DNA from: a virus
Taxonomy: Duplodnaviria > Heunggongvirae > Uroviricota > Caudoviricetes
DNA: 9,478 nt
IMG/VR virus record: IMGVR_UViG_2648501186_000020
Direction: 5' to 3' (one strand)
The stretch's first letter is position 1. Every line of letters begins with the position of its first letter. Made by a program: the position numbers and the translations under genes. Shown here piece after piece: positions 1 to 6,197 of this stretch. Under the pieces are notes generated by a model. The model searched no databases. It was not told the DNA's origin and worked only from the letters and a program-made list of their open reading frames with translations.

Positions 1-1254
1 ATGCTGGAACAAATGGGCATTGCCGCGAAGCAAGCCTCGTATAAATTAGCGCAACTCTCCAGCCGCGAAAAAAATCGCGTGCTGGAAAAAATCGCCGATG
101 AACTGGAAGCACAAAGCGAAATCATCCTCAACGCTAACGCCCAGGATGTTGCTGACGCGCGAGCCAATGGCCTTAGCGAAGCGATGCTTGACCGTCTGGC
201 ACTGACGCCCGCACGGCTGAAAGGCATTGCCGACGATGTACGTCAGGTGTGCAACCTCGCCGATCCGGTGGGGCAGGTAATCGATGGCGGCGTACTGGAC
301 AGCGGCCTGCGTCTTGAGCGTCGTCGCGTACCGCTGGGGGTTATTGGCGTGATTTATGAAGCGCGCCCGAACGTGACGGTTGATGTCGCTTCGCTGTGCC
401 TGAAAACCGGTAATGCGGTGATCCTGCGCGGTGGCAAAGAAACGTGTCGCACTAACGCTGCAACGGTGGCGGTGATTCAGGACGCCCTGAAATCCTGCGG
501 CTTACCGGCGGGTGCCGTGCAGGCGATTGATAATCCTGACCGTGCGCTGGTCAGTGAAATGCTGCGTATGGATAAATACATCGACATGCTGATCCCGCGT
601 GGTGGCGCTGGTTTGCATAAACTGTGCCGTGAACAGTCGACAATCCCGGTGATCACAGGTGGTATAGGCGTATGCCATATTTACGTTGATGAAAGTGTAG
701 AGATCGCTGAAGCATTAAAAGTGATCGTCAACGCGAAAACTCAGCGTCCGAGCACATGTAATACGGTTGAAACGTTGCTGGTGAATAAAAACATCGCCGA
801 TAGCTTCCTGCCCGCATTAAGCAAACAAATGGCGGAAAGCGGCGTGACATTACACGCAGATGCAGCTGCACTGGCGCAGTTGCAGGCAGGCCCTGCGAAG
901 GTGGTTGCTGTTAAAGCCGAAGAGTATGACGATGAGTTTCTGTCATTAGATTTGAACGTCAAAATCGTCAGCGATCTTGACGATGCCATCGCCCATATTC
1001 GTGAACACGGCACACAACACTCCGATGCGATCCTGACCCGCGATATGCGCAACGCCCAGCGTTTTGTTAACGAAGTGGATTCGTCCGCTGTTTACGTTAA
1101 CGCCTCTACGCGTTTTACCGACGGCGGCCAGTTTGGTCTGGGTGCGGAAGTGGCGGTAAGCACACAAAAACTCCACGCGCGTGGCCCAATGGGGCTGGAA
1201 GCACTGACCACTTACAAGTGGATCGGCATTGGTGATTACACCATTCGTGCGTAA
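1..1254 (+). CDS. proA: Gamma-glutamyl phosphate reductase (ProA), complete 417 aa
   Basis: Full-length ORF from ATG at 1 to TAA at 1252-1254. Translation reads as E. coli-type ProA ([25 protein letters not shown]...), recognised from memory. It sits directly upstream of thrW, as in the E. coli chromosome. Confidence 0.95.
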
Positions 1255-1368: not shown

Positions 1369-1444
1369 GCCGATATAGCTCAGTTGGTAGAGCAGCGCAT
1401 TCGTAATGCGAAGGTCGTAGGTTCGACTCCTATTATCGGCACCA
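1369..1444 (+). tRNA. thrW: tRNA-Thr (anticodon CGT), 76 nt including CCA
   Basis: GCCGATATAGCTCAGTTGGTAGAGCAGCGCATTCGTAATGCGAAGGTCGTAGGTTCGACTCCTATTATCGGCACCA. Cloverleaf elements are visible: D-loop AGCTCAGTTGGTAGAGC, anticodon loop with CGT, T-loop GGTTCGACTCC, 3' CCA. Position after proA matches thrW. Confidence 0.93.
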
Positions 1445-1458
1445 TTAAAATCAATAAG

Positions 1459-2622
1459 TTACACATCATTAGTACCTTCCTTATTTTTTGACTGGGACAA
1501 ATTTGGGACCGATGGGTTCAGGATCGAGTCTATTTGCCGTGCGTGTTCGGTAAGGTGATTAGGTGCAAGGTGAGCATATCGACGAACCATTTCGATAGAC
1601 TCCCAGCCTCCCATTTCCTGTAACACTGACAACGGGACTCCGGCTTGAACCAGCCAACTTGCCCAGGTGTGTCTCAAGTCGTGAAATCTGAAATCATCAA
1701 TACCAGCCCGTCTCAGCGCCGCTTTCCAGGCTGTGTTTGCGTCATACCGCATCTTCCTTACTGTTGGCGCTTTCGTTCCGTCTGGTTTGGTACAGCTTTC
1801 CTTGTACACAAATACCCAACGGTGATGATTCCCGATTTGTTTTTTCAATACGCGACATGCAGTATCATTCAGCGCAACGCCAATTGCGCGGTTTGATTTA
1901 CTCTCTTCCGGGTTTATCCATGCCACCCGGCGCTGCATATCTATTTGTTGCCATTCAAGGTTGATGATGTTCGAGCGTCTTAAGCCTGTTGCCAGTGCAA
2001 ATTCAACAACAGACTTTAATGGCTCCGGACATTCATCAATCAGCCTTTGTGCTTCATGGGGCTCCAGCCAGCGGATCCGTTTATTCTTTGGTTGAGGCAC
2101 TTTAATAATTGGTGCCTTATCCAGCATTTTCCATTCACGCTCTGCGGCTCTTAGTAGGGCCTTTATAAATGAAAGATGCGTAGCCTTCGTTGCAACGGAC
2201 GCTGGTTTTGGCGTGTATTCTGGAACAGGTTTCCCTTTTTTTCTGCATGCTTCTGCCCTGAGTTTCCAGTTTTCCTCATGACGCCGGTTCGTCATTTTCT
2301 GCATTGCTGAATAAATTTTTGATTCAGTAATGTCTCTTAGTTGCATTCCTGCGAAATGTTGAAGCCAGAATCCGATCCGGCTTTTGTCATCGTCCAGTGA
2401 TTTTTTATGTGCTTTCTCTTCAAGCCACCTGACACAAGCTTCCTCGAACGTTATATCAGGTATTTCACCAAGTTTGCTGACCCGCCATGCTTCAGCCTTT
2501 AGCTTGTCATGGAGTTCTGTCGCCTGCCTTTTGTCCTTTGTTCCAAGAGACTGTTTAAATCTTTTACCGTTCGGCAATGTGAAACTGGCGTACCATATTT
2601 CACCTCTGCGGAAGAGTGACAT
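1459..2622 (-). CDS. int: Phage tyrosine integrase, P22-like, 387 aa
   Basis: ORF begins [14 protein letters not shown] (typical arm-binding N-terminus). C-terminal catalytic region has HDLRHTWAS (HxxR) and RRYAHL (Tyr). Stop lies 15 bp from the 3' end of thrW, the known P22 attachment site. Length matches P22 Int (387 aa) from memory. Confidence 0.92.
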
Positions 2623-3516: not shown

Positions 3517-4043
3517 TTGCGTAACTCCGATAATTCGTTAAAGCGTTCCATAAACATCCCGTAGGCATGGCCTGGAGCCAGTGGAATCACGTTGAACATC
3601 TCTGTTGCCGGGATACCTTCCAGCACAGGCCAGAAAGAGCCATCATCAAGCCCGAGATCGCGGCGTTCGGTTGCCAGCATAATGAGATCGGCATATTTCA
3701 CTGGCGTGCTCATAACAGGAGGTAACCCGTATTTCTCACGGATTACGGCGTCTATTTTTTCTTCCATCCGTTTATAGTCAGGAAGAAGTCGTTTCAGTGG
3801 TGCGGGGATGTCCTGGCAATATGCTTCTGTTGCATCATGCATTAAAGCTTCAAAAGCAAATTCCTGCGGCACCAGCTGGCTGCAAAGCACCGCATGTTGG
3901 GCGACACTGTAGAAGTGTGAAAGATGTCCTGCAAAGCGACAGATATTTGAAAGGGAAACCGCGATATCGTTAATAACGATGTCGTCTTTATTTATCCTGT
4001 CATAATAAAAATGCTTCCCGGAAAAAGTTTTAATAAATGACAT
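3507..4043 (-). CDS. yfdR: HD-domain phosphohydrolase, 178 aa (YfdR-like 5'-deoxynucleotidase family)
   Basis: HD motif visible in LMHDATEAY. Start MSFIKTF at 4043 is preceded by SD GGAG with 6-nt spacer. The track's longer form starting at 4070 lacks an SD. Strongly resembles CPS-53 YfdR, from memory. Confidence 0.8.
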   Translation of the reverse strand: MSFIKTFSGKHFYYDRINKDDIVINDIAVSLSNICRFAGHLSHFYSVAQHAVLCSQLVPQEFAFEALMHDATEAYCQDIPAPLKRLLPDYKRMEEKIDAVIREKYGLPPVMSTPVKYADLIMLATERRDLGLDDGSFWPVLEGIPATEMFNVIPLAPGHAYGMFMERFNELSELRKCA

Positions 4044-4168
4044 TTTGTTCTCCACGTATATGCGCTGCACCGCGCTGAATTCCGGTAAAAGGAAGCCCTC
4101 ACCGTCCGGCGATTATTGAGTCAATTACATTTCCATAAATGCCCCCGTAGGGGCGGTTAGTTTCTCCA

Positions 4169-4255
4169 CAAAACAGAGAAGAACACCTGCGGTGGCAGCC
4201 GCCCGGATGGATTGGGTTATGAGCCCGTCGTCCGGTGATGCTCTTCTCTGTTTTG
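4169..4255. repeat. Perfect 14-bp inverted repeat CAAAACAGAGAAGA / TCTTCTCTGTTTTG enclosing a 59-nt GC-rich loop
   Basis: Read directly from the sequence. Arms are exact reverse complements. The loop contains further short complementary segments (GCGG/CCGC, CCGG/CCGG). Confidence 0.85.
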
Positions 4256-4523
4256 TAAAAAGGACGGTACCAGCCGGAAGCAAGGGTACAAGCTGGTACC
4301 GCCAAGACTACACACAGCATAAAGTTGTGGTGCCGGGTGCCTCCCGGTGCCTGGCGAAGGTTGCACACCAGGCGGGTGGGTATCCACAGAAGGTCGACTG
4401 TCAGCCTCAACCTTAACCCGCGTGCGCTGAGCCGCATTCACCACAACGCTAAGGATTCTCTCTGGTTGAAAATACTTAGCTGTTATGTGCCTGCTTTTAG
4501 CCACATCAGGCGAGGTGGACCTA

Positions 4524-4572
4524 GTTATTCCCCAACAACAAGGATTCGGTTAATCTGGTTATCCCCAACAAC
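4524..4572 (+). repeat. Two direct repeats GTTAT(T)CCCCAACAAC, 34 bp apart, immediately upstream of the orf144 RBS; a third degenerate copy (CCACAACGCTAAGGATTC) lies at 4441-4458
   Basis: Copies at 4524-4539 and 4558-4572. The AAGGATTC...CTGGTT context also recurs at 4451-4468 and 4540-4560. Confidence 0.7.
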
Positions 4573-4587
4573 GCAAAAGGAAAAGAA

Positions 4588-5022
4588 ATGTCCGGTAATA
4601 TCTATACGCTGTACAAATCCCACTGTGAAAATGTTGGAAAGTATCGGGGCATTGAAATCAGTGGGGTAGTGTCATCAGTCGAAATAAGCAAAGTTGAATC
4701 AAGGGCAACATTACTTACTCTTTTGGACCTTGTCTTACATGAGCACCGGAAGAAATTCGGCACTCCCTATAATCAGTTGAATGGGAAAAAGGCTCTGGTT
4801 CACCTTATTCTGATGAAGCATCACTGGATGCCAAAACAGATTAATGAGATGAAATTTGATGAACTTCTTCTTTCAATTCAGGATGAACTCACACTTGATA
4901 AAATAAGCGTAACCGCCCAGAAATTTTTAGATTATCGAGACTGGAGATCACAAATTCATCATTTTGATGATTTTGACGAAAATGAATGGGATCCTAATTT
5001 GTCTGCACAATATCTAAAGTAA
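4588..5022 (+). CDS. Orphan hypothetical protein, 144 aa, transcribed opposite to the flanking phage early-left operon
   Basis: ATG preceded by SD AAGGA (4577-4581) with 6-nt spacer. Protein-like composition with His/Lys-rich centre (HEHRKKF, MKHHWMPK) and acidic C-terminus (HHFDDFDENEWDP). A plus-strand intrinsic terminator follows at 5260-5285. No family recognised. Confidence 0.75.
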   Translation: MSGNIYTLYKSHCENVGKYRGIEISGVVSSVEISKVESRATLLTLLDLVLHEHRKKFGTPYNQLNGKKALVHLILMKHHWMPKQINEMKFDELLLSIQDELTLDKISVTAQKFLDYRDWRSQIHHFDDFDENEWDPNLSAQYLK

Positions 5023-5200
5023 CATCCTGTGATAAAACCGTGATTTCCTGATCCAGTTTTTTTAAGGAGTCTATTGTTTCCTGTCGATAAGACAGCACTT
5101 CACGAAGCTGGTTTATAGCTGCCAGCTTCTTTGTCATCCACTCATAAATTTCCTCATCTGTGTAGCCAGGCGCGACGATTTTGGGTTCTGTTTTGTGCAT
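4994..5200 (-). CDS. Small hypothetical protein, 68 aa; first gene downstream of PL
   Basis: ATG at 5200 with strong SD GAGGAG and 7-nt spacer. The track's longer form uses an upstream TTG. Stop TAG at 4994-4996 overlaps the 3' end of orf144 by 29 bp (convergent). No arginine-rich N-like motif; mid-region may be helical (AAINQLREVLSYRQETIDSLKKLDQEI). Confidence 0.6.
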   Translation of the reverse strand: MHKTEPKIVAPGYTDEEIYEWMTKKLAAINQLREVLSYRQETIDSLKKLDQEITVLSQDVTLDIVQTN

Positions 5201-5257: not shown

Positions 5258-5259
5258 TA

Positions 5260-5285
5260 AGCGTCCTGTAGGGCGCTTTTTTGTT
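5260..5285 (+). terminator. Rho-independent terminator, plus strand (likely ends the orf144 transcript)
   Basis: Stem AGCGTCC / GGGCGCT (7 bp including one G-U), loop TGTA, followed by TTTTTTGTTG. The same hairpin on the minus-strand transcript is the one adjacent to the boxA-like element. Confidence 0.55.
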
Positions 5286-5434: not shown

Positions 5435-6109
5435 TTAGGCTTTGATTTTGTATCTTCTTGGTTTTCCTGAGAAAATCACTGTACCAATTATAGAGCAATT
5501 ACCGTTGATCTTAATGTAAGGCTCAGGCCAGTTTGGGTTTAACGCTTTGAGATAACGCTGTGTCCCATCTTCTATCAACCTTTTGAAGGTGGTTTCACCT
5601 GTATCGTGCATCAATGCAATAACGTCGTCACCGTGGCAGGCAGGTACTTCAGGATCGACAAAAATCATGTCTCCCGGGCGGTACTCATCAATCATTGAAT
5701 CACCTATCACCCGCAAGATATAAGTCATTTCCCCACAGGGTACAGGGCAGGGATACGTTTCTGCTGTGCTCAAATCAACCTCAGAATATCCAACTTCTTT
5801 CCATGCTCCGGCCTGTACCCATGATATGACAGGGACTAATGTGATTTGTTTATTAGTGATTGAAACATCAGGTTTTTTTGTGATGTTCGTTGTCTGGTGT
5901 TCTTGATCGAGCCATCCGACAGGCAGGTCGAAACATTTTTCGATGTGTCGTGCCATGCTGTCACCGATATTTTTAGTAGCACCATCTCCCATAAACCTGC
6001 TGGTCTGGGTTGGCTCGCGATCAATCATAGTGGCAAAGGAAGAATTCCCGCCAACACCATCTCTCAGTTTTCTGGCGTTAGACCGCCGGATGTCATGGAT
6101 TGTTTTCAT
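5435..6109 (-). CDS. cI: Prophage repressor, CI / C2-like, 224 aa (N-terminal HTH, C-terminal S24 LexA-like autopeptidase)
   Basis: C-terminal VIGDSMIDEYRPGDMIFVD contains the S24 Ser motif; TFKRL supplies the Lys. Candidate Ala-Gly cleavage site in WVQAGAW. Divergent from a cro-like gene across an operator-rich spacer. Confidence 0.88.
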   Translation of the reverse strand: MKTIHDIRRSNARKLRDGVGGNSSFATMIDREPTQTSRFMGDGATKNIGDSMARHIEKCFDLPVGWLDQEHQTTNITKKPDVSITNKQITLVPVISWVQAGAWKEVGYSEVDLSTAETYPCPVPCGEMTYILRVIGDSMIDEYRPGDMIFVDPEVPACHGDDVIALMHDTGETTFKRLIEDGTQRYLKALNPNWPEPYIKINGNCSIIGTVIFSGKPRRYKIKA

Positions 6110-6124
6110 AACGAAATTAAAACC

Positions 6125-6197
6125 CTTGTACCGTTAAGGTACAAGTATCTTGAAGGTTCATTTCAATCATGTAATATGTACACCGGAGGTACATATT
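6125..6197 (+). promoter_or_regulatory. OR operators with PR (and presumably PRM) between cI and cro
   Basis: Palindrome CTTGTACC-GTTAA-GGTACAAG (6125-6145). Second inverted repeat AATATGTAC-N7-GTACATATT (6173-6197). PR candidate TTGAAG (6150-6155), 16-nt spacer, TAATAT (6172-6177). Cro SD GGAGG at 6185-6189. Confidence 0.55.

Follow-up and report, generated by a model that had tools for sequence, protein, structure and literature searches.

The prophage locus and the cassette in front of orf144

The window, by which we mean the whole 9,478-nt stretch of the viral record IMGVR_UViG_2648501186_000020 that was analyzed, is an SfIV/e14-like lambdoid prophage at tRNA-Thr, and the region dealt with here (positions 4141–4595) adjoins orf144 (4588–5022, plus strand), a cargo gene sitting in the “sieB slot” opposite to the PL transcript and followed on its own strand by a terminator-like site (5104–5129). 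The orf144 product belongs to the ECs1072 family (NCBIfam NF033230, 157.8 bits; phrog_5286), is predicted to be soluble, and has an all-helical AlphaFold2 model (pLDDT 81). It has no Pfam or PADLOC match and no match to a toxin or defence family, and a PDB sequence search and a Foldseek search of the model against the PDB gave nothing significant; a few HEPN toxins were seen among matches at E-values above 1 and were treated as noise.

The PL-like early-left promoter (5395–5368, minus strand; TTGACA-16-CATAAT, 11 of 12 matches in the promoter scan) is located directly downstream of the repressor-gene terminator found in the same scan (5423–5404, minus strand) and is overlapped by GTACA-type operator half-sites, with the operator-like GGTACA...TGTA(T/C)C sequences near it resembling those in the repressor–cro gap (6125–6196). 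All minus-strand RNAs of the region presumably originate here, and the promoter scan of the window found no minus-strand promoter closer to the sas-like segment described below.

Positions 4486–4587 of the window align with the sequence directly upstream of sieB in the sas/sieB-esc locus of phage P22 and in lambda, with 76% identity to lambda 34394–34464, directly upstream of an ATG that aligns with the orf144 start codon (the window ATG, at 4588, corresponds to the one at lambda 34482, where an ORF begins that we take to be sieB). The anchor, both repeat copies and the −10 element are shared, as is the layout, i.e., a plus-strand gene that lies opposite the PL operon and immediately downstream of the immunity region, with the antisense strand covering the start site, the ribosome-binding site and the start codon. 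Based on this homology, a sas-like antisense RNA region was delineated at 4595–4482 (minus strand). Its sequence complements the orf144 promoter, 26-nt leader, ribosome-binding site and start codon, and it holds the conserved anchor GCCUGAUGUGGCUAAAAGCAGGC together with two GGGG-containing repeat copies. The P22 sas is said to derive from PL and not from a promoter of its own, as Ranade and Poteete reportedly found in 1993. Its published sequence (PMC13397905, Table 2) is the P22 row of the window alignment read on the opposite strand, with the 5′ end just past the sieB ATG, and sas has been described as an antisense RNA switching sieB translation (PMC12197685, PMC7067206).

The sieB-type promoter and leader of orf144 (4525–4587, plus strand) were aligned to the P22 sieB promoter, using the P22 promoter at 29690–29720, RNA start at 29727 and ATG at 29758 as reference points, which places a −10 TAATCT at 4551–4556, the Shine–Dalgarno AAGGA of orf144 at ~4578–4582 and, judging from the alignment, a probable transcription start at ~4562. 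Two direct repeats noticed in the first-pass annotation, TCCCCAACAAC, are indeed present (4529–4539 and 4562–4572, spacing 33 bp), copy 1 being in the −35 region and copy 2 at the 5′ end of the mRNA. The repeat variant of the window is CCCCAACAAC, whereas P22 and lambda carry CCCCTACAG; at least six co-varying repeat variants occur across the cassette contexts, and an exact repeat spaced 33–36 nt was found in 42 of the 78 distinct contexts versus 20 of the 1560 shuffles. Each of them forms the loop in a small hairpin (CCCC on the sense strand, GGGG on the antisense one), which fits loop–loop antisense recognition.

Behind this cassette, at least 20 unrelated families of ORFs are found, and the target in the window differs from that in P22 and lambda, being an unrelated 144-aa helical protein that falls apart from SieB in the clustering of cassette-linked ORFs and whose internal Met codons, found only at 76, 81 and 87, offer no evident Esc-type internal start. 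Given that its product shows no relation to SieB, has a predicted soluble nature and offers no such start, orf144 may not be subject to the sas-type switch in the same form. The plus-strand content of the region thus delineated is one promoter, and its remaining features are minus-strand RNA elements.

Probable minus-strand RNA elements of the region

The GC content peaks at 0.55–0.58 in the region versus 0.34–0.46 in its flanks, and the self-complementarity that had been called unusual throughout is so for 4141–4480, which folds far better than shuffles, best on the minus strand, but not for the sas-like segment (4482–4595; z-scores of +1.0 and +2.4 on the two strands). The minus strand of 4250–4480 folds at −96.4 kcal/mol (z −4.2, none of the 200 shuffles being as good) and that of 4141–4262 at −62.0 kcal/mol (z −8.6), the respective plus-strand values being −85.6 kcal/mol (z −2.45) and −56.6 kcal/mol (z −5.3). 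G-U pairs of the long stem described below read as A-C mismatches on the plus strand, for which the Rfam scan of the region returned no match. Taken together, the unequal folding of the two strands, the G-U pairs, the orientation of the terminator and the Rfam match point to a minus-strand RNA, and one of the earlier suggestions, that the PL transcript of the minus strand has an element for its processing or termination here, is supported by this strand evidence and by the presence of the same element in the PL leader of phages having no orf144.

Positions 4477–4254 (minus strand) hold a member of the STnc100/PasD sRNA family that is divergent and has no promoter of its own. At gathering thresholds, Rfam reports the tRNA-Thr alone over the window, and a permissive scan was needed to reveal the match to STnc100 (RF02076), which spans model positions 1–206 of 206 on the minus strand and scores 43.4 bits (E 9.4e-8), below the curated gathering cut-off of 47; the other members of the PL-leader subfamily are likewise below this cut-off. 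The 21-nt family motif CACCGGGAGGCACCCGGCACC, which makes up the invariant P5 hairpin and closing helix, is found exactly and once in the window (4329–4349, minus strand; the expected count of this core in shuffles of the window is 0.00) and in at least 120 viral contigs; canonical loci carrying it score 61–148 bits for STnc100, and all five that were re-scanned are called STnc100 by Rfam. The window element also has the UGGUGAAU junction and, as in STnc100, PasD and EcOnc27/sRNA103, the same helix order, a 3′ intrinsic terminator and a location in a lambdoid prophage. It differs from STnc100 in its P2, re-coded as GCGGC...GC.CGC versus CCCCC...GGGG, in lacking a promoter of its own, and in residing in an early-left leader instead of the late region downstream of Q or stx. 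No sigma-70-like promoter was found upstream of the element on the minus strand in the scan of the window, and the PL-leader subfamily has no counterpart of the TTGACA-17-TAAATT of many canonical members.

The structured domain (4324–4447, minus strand), supported by Rfam, the family motif and covariation, comprises P1 (4324–4332/4439–4447), P2 (~4420–4435), a closing P3 (4372–4377/4416–4421), P4 (4350–4354/4368–4372), a pseudoknot between the P4 loop (4357–4363) and 4408–4414, and the invariant P5 hairpin CCGGG-AGGCA-CCCGG (4333–4347), which is the CCGGG-TGCCT-CCCGG that the first reading of the plus strand had correctly spotted and which lies inside GGTGCCGGGTGCCTCCCGGTG. In an RNAalifold analysis of eight subfamily members, 8 of the 28 predicted pairs were changed on both sides, most of them belonging to the pseudoknot helix. 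As the MAFFT alignment of subfamily members placed P4 out of register, helices were also sought in each sequence without alignment and subjected to a permutation test, in which the pseudoknot scored 5.76 among 33 clusters versus 3.88 ± 0.19 for the permutations (0 of 2000). The P4 stems vary across 45 clusters, and compensatory changes keep P2, P3, P4 and the pseudoknot, the helices shared by the family including P1 as well.

Two shorter segments flank the domain. A small hairpin, GCUAAG...CUUAGC (4448–4480, minus strand; a 13-nt inverted repeat, I2, with 85% complementarity), is paired in the minimum-free-energy fold, is conserved in e14 and might be a processing boundary between the sas-like RNA and the STnc100-like domain. 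On the other side, the linker ACUUUAUGCUGUGUGUAGUCUUGG (4302–4323, minus strand), which joins the structured domain to the terminator, stays single-stranded in the minimum-free-energy fold, and its part GCUGUGUGUAGUCUU is common to the window, K-12 e14, ST64B (one change) and Cronobacter phiES15 despite the differing terminator hairpins, making it a candidate base-pairing seed. PasD, an Hfq RIL-seq sRNA, is related to STnc100 (bioRxiv 10.64898/2026.05.13.724894), and EcOnc27 overlaps STnc100 and binds Hfq (PMC12711010); by analogy, the STnc100-like RNA of the window may be Hfq-bound and trans-acting.

The intrinsic terminator (4254–4301, minus strand) has the stem CGGUACCAGC/GCUGGUACCG (4301–4292 and 4274–4265), the perfect 10-bp inverted repeat seen in the first pass, which extends to 13 pairs in the fold and is followed by U5 at 4261–4257. 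Its location corresponds to that of the terminator in the Rfam STnc100 model, and we take it as the likely 3′ end of the STnc100-like RNA. A hairpin and a U tract are kept at this place in ST64B, e14 and phiES15, with stem or loop sequences differing. The terminator part of the window and e14 also resembles the 3′ half of DicF (GGCGGUA(U/C)CAG); this similarity to RF00039 is weak, at 19.4 bits for 4262–4316 (minus strand) and 28.5 in e14 compared with a gathering cut-off of 48, and the DicF 5′ seed is absent.

The U tract doubles as the start of the 5′ arm of a long hairpin (4162–4261, minus strand), in which a 25-bp stem with five G-U pairs (5′ arm 4261–4237, 3′ arm 4186–4162) supports a branched, conserved apical part. 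The 14-bp inverted repeat described earlier (4169–4182/4242–4255) is real and grows to 25-nt arms (4168–4192/4232–4256). The 25-pair stem appears in both the minimum-free-energy and centroid folds and is longer than the ~20 bp duplex that RNase III requires. In SfIV, mEp460, Lys8385Vzw and Salmonella ST64B, the hairpin is conserved with compensatory changes (G-C to A-U, G-U to G-C) and is found ~40 nt upstream of the yfdP start; it is probably an RNase III processing site or a 5′ stabiliser upstream of the first early-left gene. RNase III sites occur in phage early transcripts, e.g., in the lambda N leader, at sib and in the T7 intercistronic regions. The window hairpin resembles them as a near-perfect 25-bp duplex located shortly before the start of a gene on a polycistronic early transcript, and differs from them in that its apical part is unusually conserved and branched; its cleavage is a prediction.

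A deletion junction, spurious genes and relatives in other prophages

The GC hairpin GCCCCCGTAGGGGC at 4141–4154 is present as reported; it had been put forward as a possible weak tL-like terminator, and it turned out to be the yfdQ–yfdR intercistronic hairpin of SfIV, here doubling as the junction of a 1.29-kb deletion that removed the yfdP-like and yfdQ-like genes. In the BLAST comparison with SfIV, window positions 4100–4154 correspond to 25899–25953 and positions 4143–4600 to 27246–27703, the two alignments overlapping by 12 nt; SfIV has a near-identical hairpin after yfdQ and a similar one ahead of the yfdP ribosome-binding site. The junction allele is found, at 80% or higher query coverage, in 458 of the 5426 complete E. 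coli genomes. An arrangement in two places per phage, which might have suggested a second copy in the style of putL/putR, was rejected, as these places lie on either side of the yfdPQ deletion and the window has a single occurrence of the motif.

The RNA region itself is present in about a third of the complete E. coli genomes (1830 of 5426) and is nearly always annotated as a gene or pseudogene, most genomes carrying a “hypothetical protein” CDS over it, others a frameshifted pseudogene and K-12 the “ymfH” gene, whereas the annotators of SfV and ST64B left the stretch non-coding. The first-pass statement that no credible ORF exists needs qualification, in that there are ORFs in the region (112 and 95 aa on the minus strand, 74 and 114 aa on the plus strand), but none is conserved, and the PGAP pseudogene and “ymfH” are spurious calls over an RNA. 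YmfH and the window ORF align over 34 aa only, at 89% DNA identity, and ST64B carries a 4-nt indel in the stretch; the 112-aa minus-strand ORF, whose translation is rich in Arg, Cys and His, has no family match. SfIV_34 is a YfdP call extended too far upstream: YfdP is a 120-aa protein with a ribosome-binding site of its own, the real yfdP start being 120 codons from its stop, in agreement with phrog_204.

Relatives of the element recur in comparable settings. ST64B has the same element between its repressor gene and yfdP, with no orf144; in phiES15, it is found upstream of kil, and four further contigs carry it on the strand of a cI-like gene, 530–900 nt downstream of that gene. Only the window type and phiES15 have the sas anchor next to the STnc100-like element; the other members of the subfamily do not. 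The K-12 e14 copy, annotated as “ymfH” and grouped with intE, xisE and ymfJ in the YmfT iModulon (PMC12132413), has a damaged P5. In K-12 Qin, the STnc100-like domain lies between dicF and dicB, has a P5 of CCUGG/CCAGG with an unchanged loop, and ends ~25 nt before the dicB start with no terminator of its own. In K-12 CPS-53, the region upstream of yfdP is absent. The STnc1310 RNA seen in ST64B dRNA-seq data was considered as the same RNA and rejected, as it maps ~70 nt upstream of the element (~70–125 nt), at the start of the PL transcript.

Interpretation and rival explanations

It is reasonably probable, in our view, that the early-left (PL) operon has this hairpin-rich stretch as its natural non-coding leader, the features of the stretch being read mainly on the minus strand, and a comparable, fairly good degree of confidence can be attached to the explanation as a whole, according to which this PL leader consists of a sas-like RNA, an STnc100-like RNA, a terminator and a long hairpin. 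These elements are all of known kinds and mostly mis-annotated as protein genes; their functions we infer from homology. The analysis shows the sequence homologies, the structures, their covariation, the strand, the genomic contexts and the deletion, whereas the ends of all transcripts, binding by Hfq, cleavage by RNase III, an effect on orf144 and whatever orf144 itself may do are likewise inferred.

In a lysogen, PL (5395–5368) would be repressed and orf144 would be made from its own sieB-type promoter. Upon induction or infection, leftward transcription from PL would pass through a 68-codon ORF and antisense across orf144 into the region, where 4595–4482 would yield a sas-like antisense RNA able to pair with the orf144 mRNA at its 5′ end, ribosome-binding site and start codon, both G-rich repeat copies of the antisense RNA matching the C-rich 5′ end of that mRNA. 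Such pairing might shut off or re-programme orf144 translation and keep the gene in the exclusion slot from acting on its own phage, as P22 sas does for sieB. Transcription of 4477–4254 would then produce the pseudoknotted STnc100-type domain, the single-stranded linker and the intrinsic terminator, and termination combined with 5′ processing could free an sRNA of ~225 nt that, by analogy with STnc100, EcOnc27 and PasD, may bind Hfq and act in trans. Polymerases reading through would make the 25-bp hairpin (4261–4162), a likely RNase III substrate that may separate or stabilise the downstream early mRNA, which here starts with yfdR instead of the usual yfdP because yfdP and yfdQ are deleted at the 4141–4154 hairpin.

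Known systems resemble parts of this arrangement. In P22 and lambda, there is no sRNA like the STnc100-type one into which the window's sas-like RNA directly runs. The DicF/dicB part of Qin is likewise a small RNA and a structured RNA within an early-left-type lambdoid operon, in the order DicF–domain–dicB, whereas the window has the reverse order of domain and DicF-like terminator. HK022 putL/putR and the HK639 put-like RNA are also structured RNAs in an N-less lambdoid PL leader upstream of terminators; identity with these was rejected after comparison, as neither sequence nor structural resemblance was found.

A rival explanation is that the element acts primarily in cis, as a leader RNA in early-left operons of N-less lambdoid phages, by binding a host machine, either RNA polymerase (as in HK022 put) or the 30S subunit via the invariant Shine–Dalgarno-like GGAGG in the P5 loop, and would thereby affect read-through of the following terminator or translation of yfdP, kil or dicB, instead of being mainly a trans-acting sRNA. 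The promoter-less subfamily sits between PL and the early-left genes in several independent lineages, in the contigs checked the stretch from the repressor gene to the element has no N-like ORF of at least 70 aa listed, and the terminator after the element precedes all the downstream early-left genes. A cis role is further hinted at by the invariant junction, the GGAGGCA loop and the pseudoknot, which exceed the needs of a simple base-pairing sRNA scaffold and suggest a specific binding partner, as well as by the Qin domain abutting the dicB start, something that our preferred explanation leaves unexplained. The lack of likeness to the put RNAs speaks against this, however, as do the own promoter and terminator of many canonical members, which look like stand-alone sRNA genes (several being then followed by an apparent opposite-strand terminator, as far as the flanks could be read by eye), the Hfq binding and trans targets of relatives, the position of the Qin DicF terminator upstream of the element and not downstream, and the ~900 nt separating the window element from PL. 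We regard a mainly cis-acting leader as unlikely, and the broader version of it, in which the STnc100-type domain would be an unrecognised class of cis-leader with a nut/put-like role, unrelated to both, and sRNAs such as STnc100 and PasD its derived, promoter-equipped copies, as improbable to the same extent.

Somewhat less likely still is that both TCCCCAACAAC copies serve at the DNA level, as transcription-factor sites controlling the orf144 promoter, and not in RNA–RNA recognition. In favour of this, copy 1 coincides in part with the −35 region and copy 2 with the start site, and the fixed spacing of 33–36 bp is about three helical turns; yet the repeat sequence shifts between lineages while both copies stay identical, the CCCC/GGGG loops fit antisense recognition, and no co-varying regulator is evident, given that the downstream cargo genes show no kinship and the adjacent immunity regions vary. 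A plus-strand role for the whole region, be it a long structured 5′ leader, a riboswitch or an ncRNA partner of orf144 akin to a type III antitoxin or a retron, can be given very little credence, even though the region adjoins orf144, its direct repeats end at the ribosome-binding site and 4141–4480 folds somewhat better than shuffles on that strand too. The long leader proposed in the first pass is not supported, as comparison with the homologous P22 sieB promoter and its mapped start site gives a leader of ~26 nt; the plus strand folds less well, with A-C mismatches for G-U pairs and no Rfam match, and the hairpin-rich part is found without orf144 in ST64B, phiES15, mEp460, Qin and e14. The suggestion of an RNA partner for orf144 is right in the limited sense that a cis-antisense RNA of the sas type is predicted, and the GC-rich hairpins travel independently of the gene. 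Type III toxin–antitoxin (ToxIN-like) and retron msr–msd identities were both rejected, with no array detected by Tandem Repeats Finder in 4000–4700, no toxin or defence match for orf144, no reverse transcriptase among the annotated genes of the locus and no Rfam retron match. Just as improbable is a decayed protein-coding gene, a frameshifted remnant corresponding to the PGAP “frameshifted hypothetical protein”, ymfH or SfIV_34, for which one might cite the PGAP frameshifted CDS (~4125–4444, minus strand), the widespread “hypothetical protein” and ymfH calls, the 112-aa ORF and the real yfdP/yfdQ deletion abutting the region. The frame is unconserved (34 aa shared by YmfH and the window ORF, the ST64B indel), the Arg/Cys/His-rich translation matches no family, SfIV_34 is an over-extended YfdP, the SfV and ST64B annotators saw no gene, and the substitutions preserve RNA helices. 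Intact SfIV, SfV, SfII and ST64B carry the same non-coding leader, gene loss being only adjacent to it and not within it; the refutation raised at the outset, a decayed coding gene, does not apply to this region.

Reading the region as a PL leader resolves a frequent annotation error, in which a widespread RNA region is called a hypothetical protein, a frameshifted pseudogene or “ymfH”. It also extends the STnc100/PasD family to a promoter-less early-operon subfamily falling below the Rfam threshold and adds a covariation-supported pseudoknot to this family, and, as copies reside in K-12 e14 and Qin, the function of the RNA can be tested in a standard laboratory strain. The P22 sas/sieB promoter cassette, for its part, emerges as a portable unit fronting at least 20 unrelated small genes in lambdoid phages; the sieB slot is probably a variable phage-exclusion locus with a built-in self-immunity switch, and orf144, of the ECs1072 family, is hereby nominated as a candidate exclusion gene.

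Prophage layout and folding of the hairpin-rich region

The window is lambdoid prophage DNA integrated beside a tRNA-Thr gene (1369-1441 (+), 71.8 bits, Rfam), which adjoins the integrase gene (1459-2622 (-)) and is likely the attachment site; proA lies upstream. The gene order, as taken from an identical E. coli locus and Shigella phage SfIV, continues with yfdT-like and yfdR-like genes (-) up to 4070, the hairpin-rich region (4141-4572), orf144 (4588-5022 (+), annotated as “ECs1072 family phage-associated protein”), a 68-codon ORF (5200-4994 (-)), a ymfK-type LexA/cI-like repressor gene (5435-6109 (-)) and, beyond it, a cro-like gene (+) followed by replication genes. The orf144 product, a member of a narrow protein family, had no match in Pfam or PADLOC, and its all-helical AlphaFold2 model matched no PDB fold; arrays of the Sakai lysogen have detected ECs1072 (PMC2241611).

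The top match of the promoter scan in this region (TTGACA-16-CATAAT, 5395-5368 (-), 11/12), just past the terminator of the repressor gene (5423-5404 (-)), has its hexamers overlapped by GGTACA...TGTA(T/C)C, which resembles repressor-cro gap sequences, and is taken as the putative early-left promoter, PL. A PL transcript would run leftward through the 68-codon ORF, antisense across orf144 and into the hairpin-rich region. Two plus-strand terminator-like hairpins (5104-5129 and 5259-5278) lie 3′ of orf144. The first falls within the coding sequence of the 68-codon ORF on the other strand, so that this ORF and the orf144 3′ UTR overlap convergently.

Every repeat listed by the first-pass annotation was recovered by repeat scans, and its observation of unusual self-complementarity is confirmed, as 4141-4480 folds better than its shuffles, more strongly so on the minus strand: -96.4 kcal/mol (z -4.2) versus -85.6 (z -2.45) on the plus strand for 4250-4480, and -62.0 kcal/mol (z -8.6) versus -56.6 (z -5.3) for 4141-4262. 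The 14-bp inverted repeat forms the centre of a stem of 25 pairs; the five G-U pairs that this stem has on the minus strand would become A-C mismatches on the plus strand. The orf144-adjacent segment (4482-4595) showed no unusual stability on either strand.

A pseudoknotted STnc100-type domain and its terminator

On the minus strand, 4477-4254 gave a full-length STnc100 match in a permissive Rfam scan (43.4 bits, cut-off 47, E 9.4e-8). The window has a single copy of its invariant motif, CACCGGGAGGCACCCGGCACC; at least 120 viral contigs also carry the motif and yielded 111 distinct 271-nt contexts with otherwise very diverse flanks. Canonical motif-bearing loci score 61-148 bits and are thus STnc100 by Rfam’s own standard, whereas the subfamily including the window scores below the cut-off; its helix P2 is re-coded (GCGGC..GC.CGC versus the canonical CCCCC..GGGG), and it has no sigma-70 promoter before P1, unlike many canonical members, in which TTGACA-17-TAAATT directly precedes GUGGUGAAU. 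Copies of the motif lie 484 nt apart on one strand in contigs L043, L058 and L079, three copies lie within a few hundred bases on one strand in L017, L024 and L067, and L098 and L115 each hold a second Rfam STnc100 match without the exact motif.

Helices P3 and P4 vary through compensatory changes, and pairing between the P4 loop and the stretch right after P2 forms a pseudoknot (4357-4363 with 4408-4414 in the window), a helix that RNAalifold also picks and in which several pairs have changed on both sides. Covariation among homologues, which the first-pass annotation had named as a check of a structured RNA, was borne out here by permutation: over 33 sequence clusters, the longest Watson-Crick run of the pseudoknot averages 5.76, compared with 3.88 ± 0.19 after swapping loops between clusters (0/2000) and 3.59 for shuffled loops.

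Between P1 and the terminator, the linker GCUGUGUGUAGUCUU is conserved in the window, K-12 e14, ST64B and phiES15, the terminator hairpins of which differ, and an sRNA seed is expected to show just this pattern; for the STnc100 relatives PasD and EcOnc27, the literature describes binding to Hfq and targets in trans. The stem at 4265-4301 and the U5 tract after it are predicted to form a minus-strand terminator. The 25-bp hairpin (4261-4162), which starts with this U tract, is by its duplex length a plausible substrate of RNase III. In mEp460 and Lys8385Vzw, the terminator and long hairpin immediately precede yfdP, with the STnc100 core absent, and in ST64B, the pair carries compensatory changes. 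The linker and terminator weakly resemble the DicF 3′ half (19.4 bits at 4262-4316 (-) in the window and 28.5 bits at 501-554 (-) in the e14 sequence L243, cut-off 48), and GGCGGUA(U/C)CAG of the terminator stem is common to both, which hints at a common ancestry of these modules.

Elements of the subfamily are found between the repressor gene and yfdP in ST64B, upstream of kil in phiES15, 530-900 nt downstream of a cI-like gene in four more contigs, and, with P5 damaged, under “ymfH” in e14. The member in K-12 Qin (L244 2455-2580) is a pseudoknotted, STnc100-like domain that scores 34.4 bits, under the cut-off. It has the DicF terminator on one side and the dicB start codon on the other, ending ~25 nt before the ATG, and its P5 (CCUGG-AGGCA-CCAGG) shows a compensatory change with the loop kept. 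The STnc100-type core is present in 1830 of the 5426 complete E. coli genomes, nearly always under a “hypothetical protein” CDS. ST64B also carries isrK (64.3 bits) and, directly after it, a C4 antisense RNA (79.7 bits), both above Rfam cut-offs (L006 5732-5920), ~1 kb downstream of the cro-like sb39 gene.

A sas-type cassette in front of orf144

A distant similarity search matched window 4486-4556 to lambda 34394-34464, the alignment continuing to an ATG at 34482 that aligns with that of orf144; the lambda ORF starting there, which we take to be sieB, is absent from the J02459 feature table. P22 aligns likewise (sieB promoter 29690-29720, RNA start 29727, sieB ATG 29758 and esc 29830 in its record), and the sequence of its sas RNA (PMC13397905), an antisense RNA switching sieB translation (PMC12197685, PMC7067206), is the complement of the aligned cassette stretch (cassette, 4482-4595). 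By homology, the orf144 -10 element would be TAATCT (4551-4556), with a start site at ~4562 and a 26-nt leader.

The first copy of the direct repeat (4529-4539) lies within a small hairpin at the -35 region, and the second (4562-4572) would be the 5′ end of the orf144 mRNA. Scanning viral contigs for the conserved sas anchor gave 124 sites in 78 distinct contexts, in 42 of which 8 nt or more are repeated exactly at a spacing of 33-36 nt (versus 20 of 1560 shuffles). The repeats come in at least six lineage-specific versions (ACCCCTACAG, TCCCCAACAAC, TTCCACAGTCAA, CCCCAACGA, CCCCAATGCAA and CCCCCACAA), both copies changing together between lineages; that they are DNA operators is unlikely. As clustering of the linked ORFs places the cassette in front of at least 20 unrelated families (SieB at 16 sites, the orf144 family at 14, a 143-167-aa family at 13 and a 106-aa family at 11), it is a portable promoter-plus-antisense unit, of which orf144 is one cargo. 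About half of the contexts at anchor loci L130-L237 (sequence CTTTTARCCACRTCAGGC) are of a single-hairpin type that lacks the second repeat; the 3′ arm of this hairpin holds the Shine-Dalgarno sequence, and K-12 ymfI is one example.

Competing readings and the meaning of the locus

The region is no gene remnant, though it adjoins a deletion, and the ORFs over it are not genes. SfIV has yfdP-like and yfdQ-like genes between yfdR and the region, and the window is without these 1.29 kb, the flanks of the deletion sharing a 12-nt overlap within the GC hairpin 4141-4154. In SfIV, a hairpin resembling it stands before the yfdP ribosome-binding site, and the deleted stretch lies between two such short hairpins (L003 25941-25955 and 27246-27260). 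The junction allele, present in 458 of the 5426 genomes, is a common, stably inherited variant. The 226-aa SfIV_34 consists of a YfdP of 120 aa, which has a GAGGAG ribosome-binding site of its own and to which the phrog_204 match is confined, plus an upstream Arg/Cys/His-rich extension; PGAP labels the window version of the ORF “frameshifted”, and the 112-aa ORF had no match in a family profile search. A pseudogene is unlikely, as the frame is not conserved: K-12 e14 “YmfH” aligns with the window ORF over 34 residues only, despite 89% DNA identity, and ST64B has a 4-nt indel. K-12 ymfH (L243 370-681, corresponding to window 4143-4518) appears to be a spurious ORF over the RNA region.

Among the earlier proposals, an RNA partner of orf144 proved largely wrong, since the STnc100-type element also occurs in ST64B, where orf144 is absent, and type III antitoxin and retron readings are unlikely; the long structured plus-strand leader fared no better, given the 26-nt leader predicted from P22. 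A minus-strand element of the PL transcript was the right call, in view of the stronger folding, STnc100 match and terminator on that strand. The main rival, to which we give a small chance, casts the pseudoknotted domain as a leader element that controls read-through or translation in cis. Its position in N-less early operons and invariant GGAGGCA loop favour this; against it, the domain has no similarity to put, the HK022 antiterminator RNA, and canonical STnc100 copies stand alone.

The best reading is a three-part one, consisting of an antisense RNA, a trans-acting sRNA and a processed hairpin. Upon derepression, PL transcription would yield a sas-type antisense RNA silencing or re-programming orf144 and a terminated STnc100-type sRNA acting in trans, while read-through transcripts would bear the 25-bp hairpin, to be processed ahead of the early genes. 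Minus-strand transcription from PL fits the grouping of “ymfH” with intE, xisE and ymfJ in the K-12 YmfT iModulon (PMC12132413), as well as the dRNA-seq-defined STnc1310 of ST64B, which maps to the PL transcript start just upstream of the element and rises along with downstream genes under inducing stresses.

As its parts all belong to known kinds (sas/sieB cassette, STnc100/PasD family, terminator and processing hairpin), the locus is no new category. Apparently new to the literature are the promoter-less early-operon STnc100 subfamily with its copies in K-12, the STnc100-type pseudoknot, and the sas-type cassette, which swaps its cargo and has repeats that co-vary. In an overexpression screen, a “ymfH” clone is reported to have triggered the RcaT toxin of retron-Sen2 (bioRxiv 10.1101/2020.06.22.160242); should there be no YmfH protein, the structured RNA could be that trigger.
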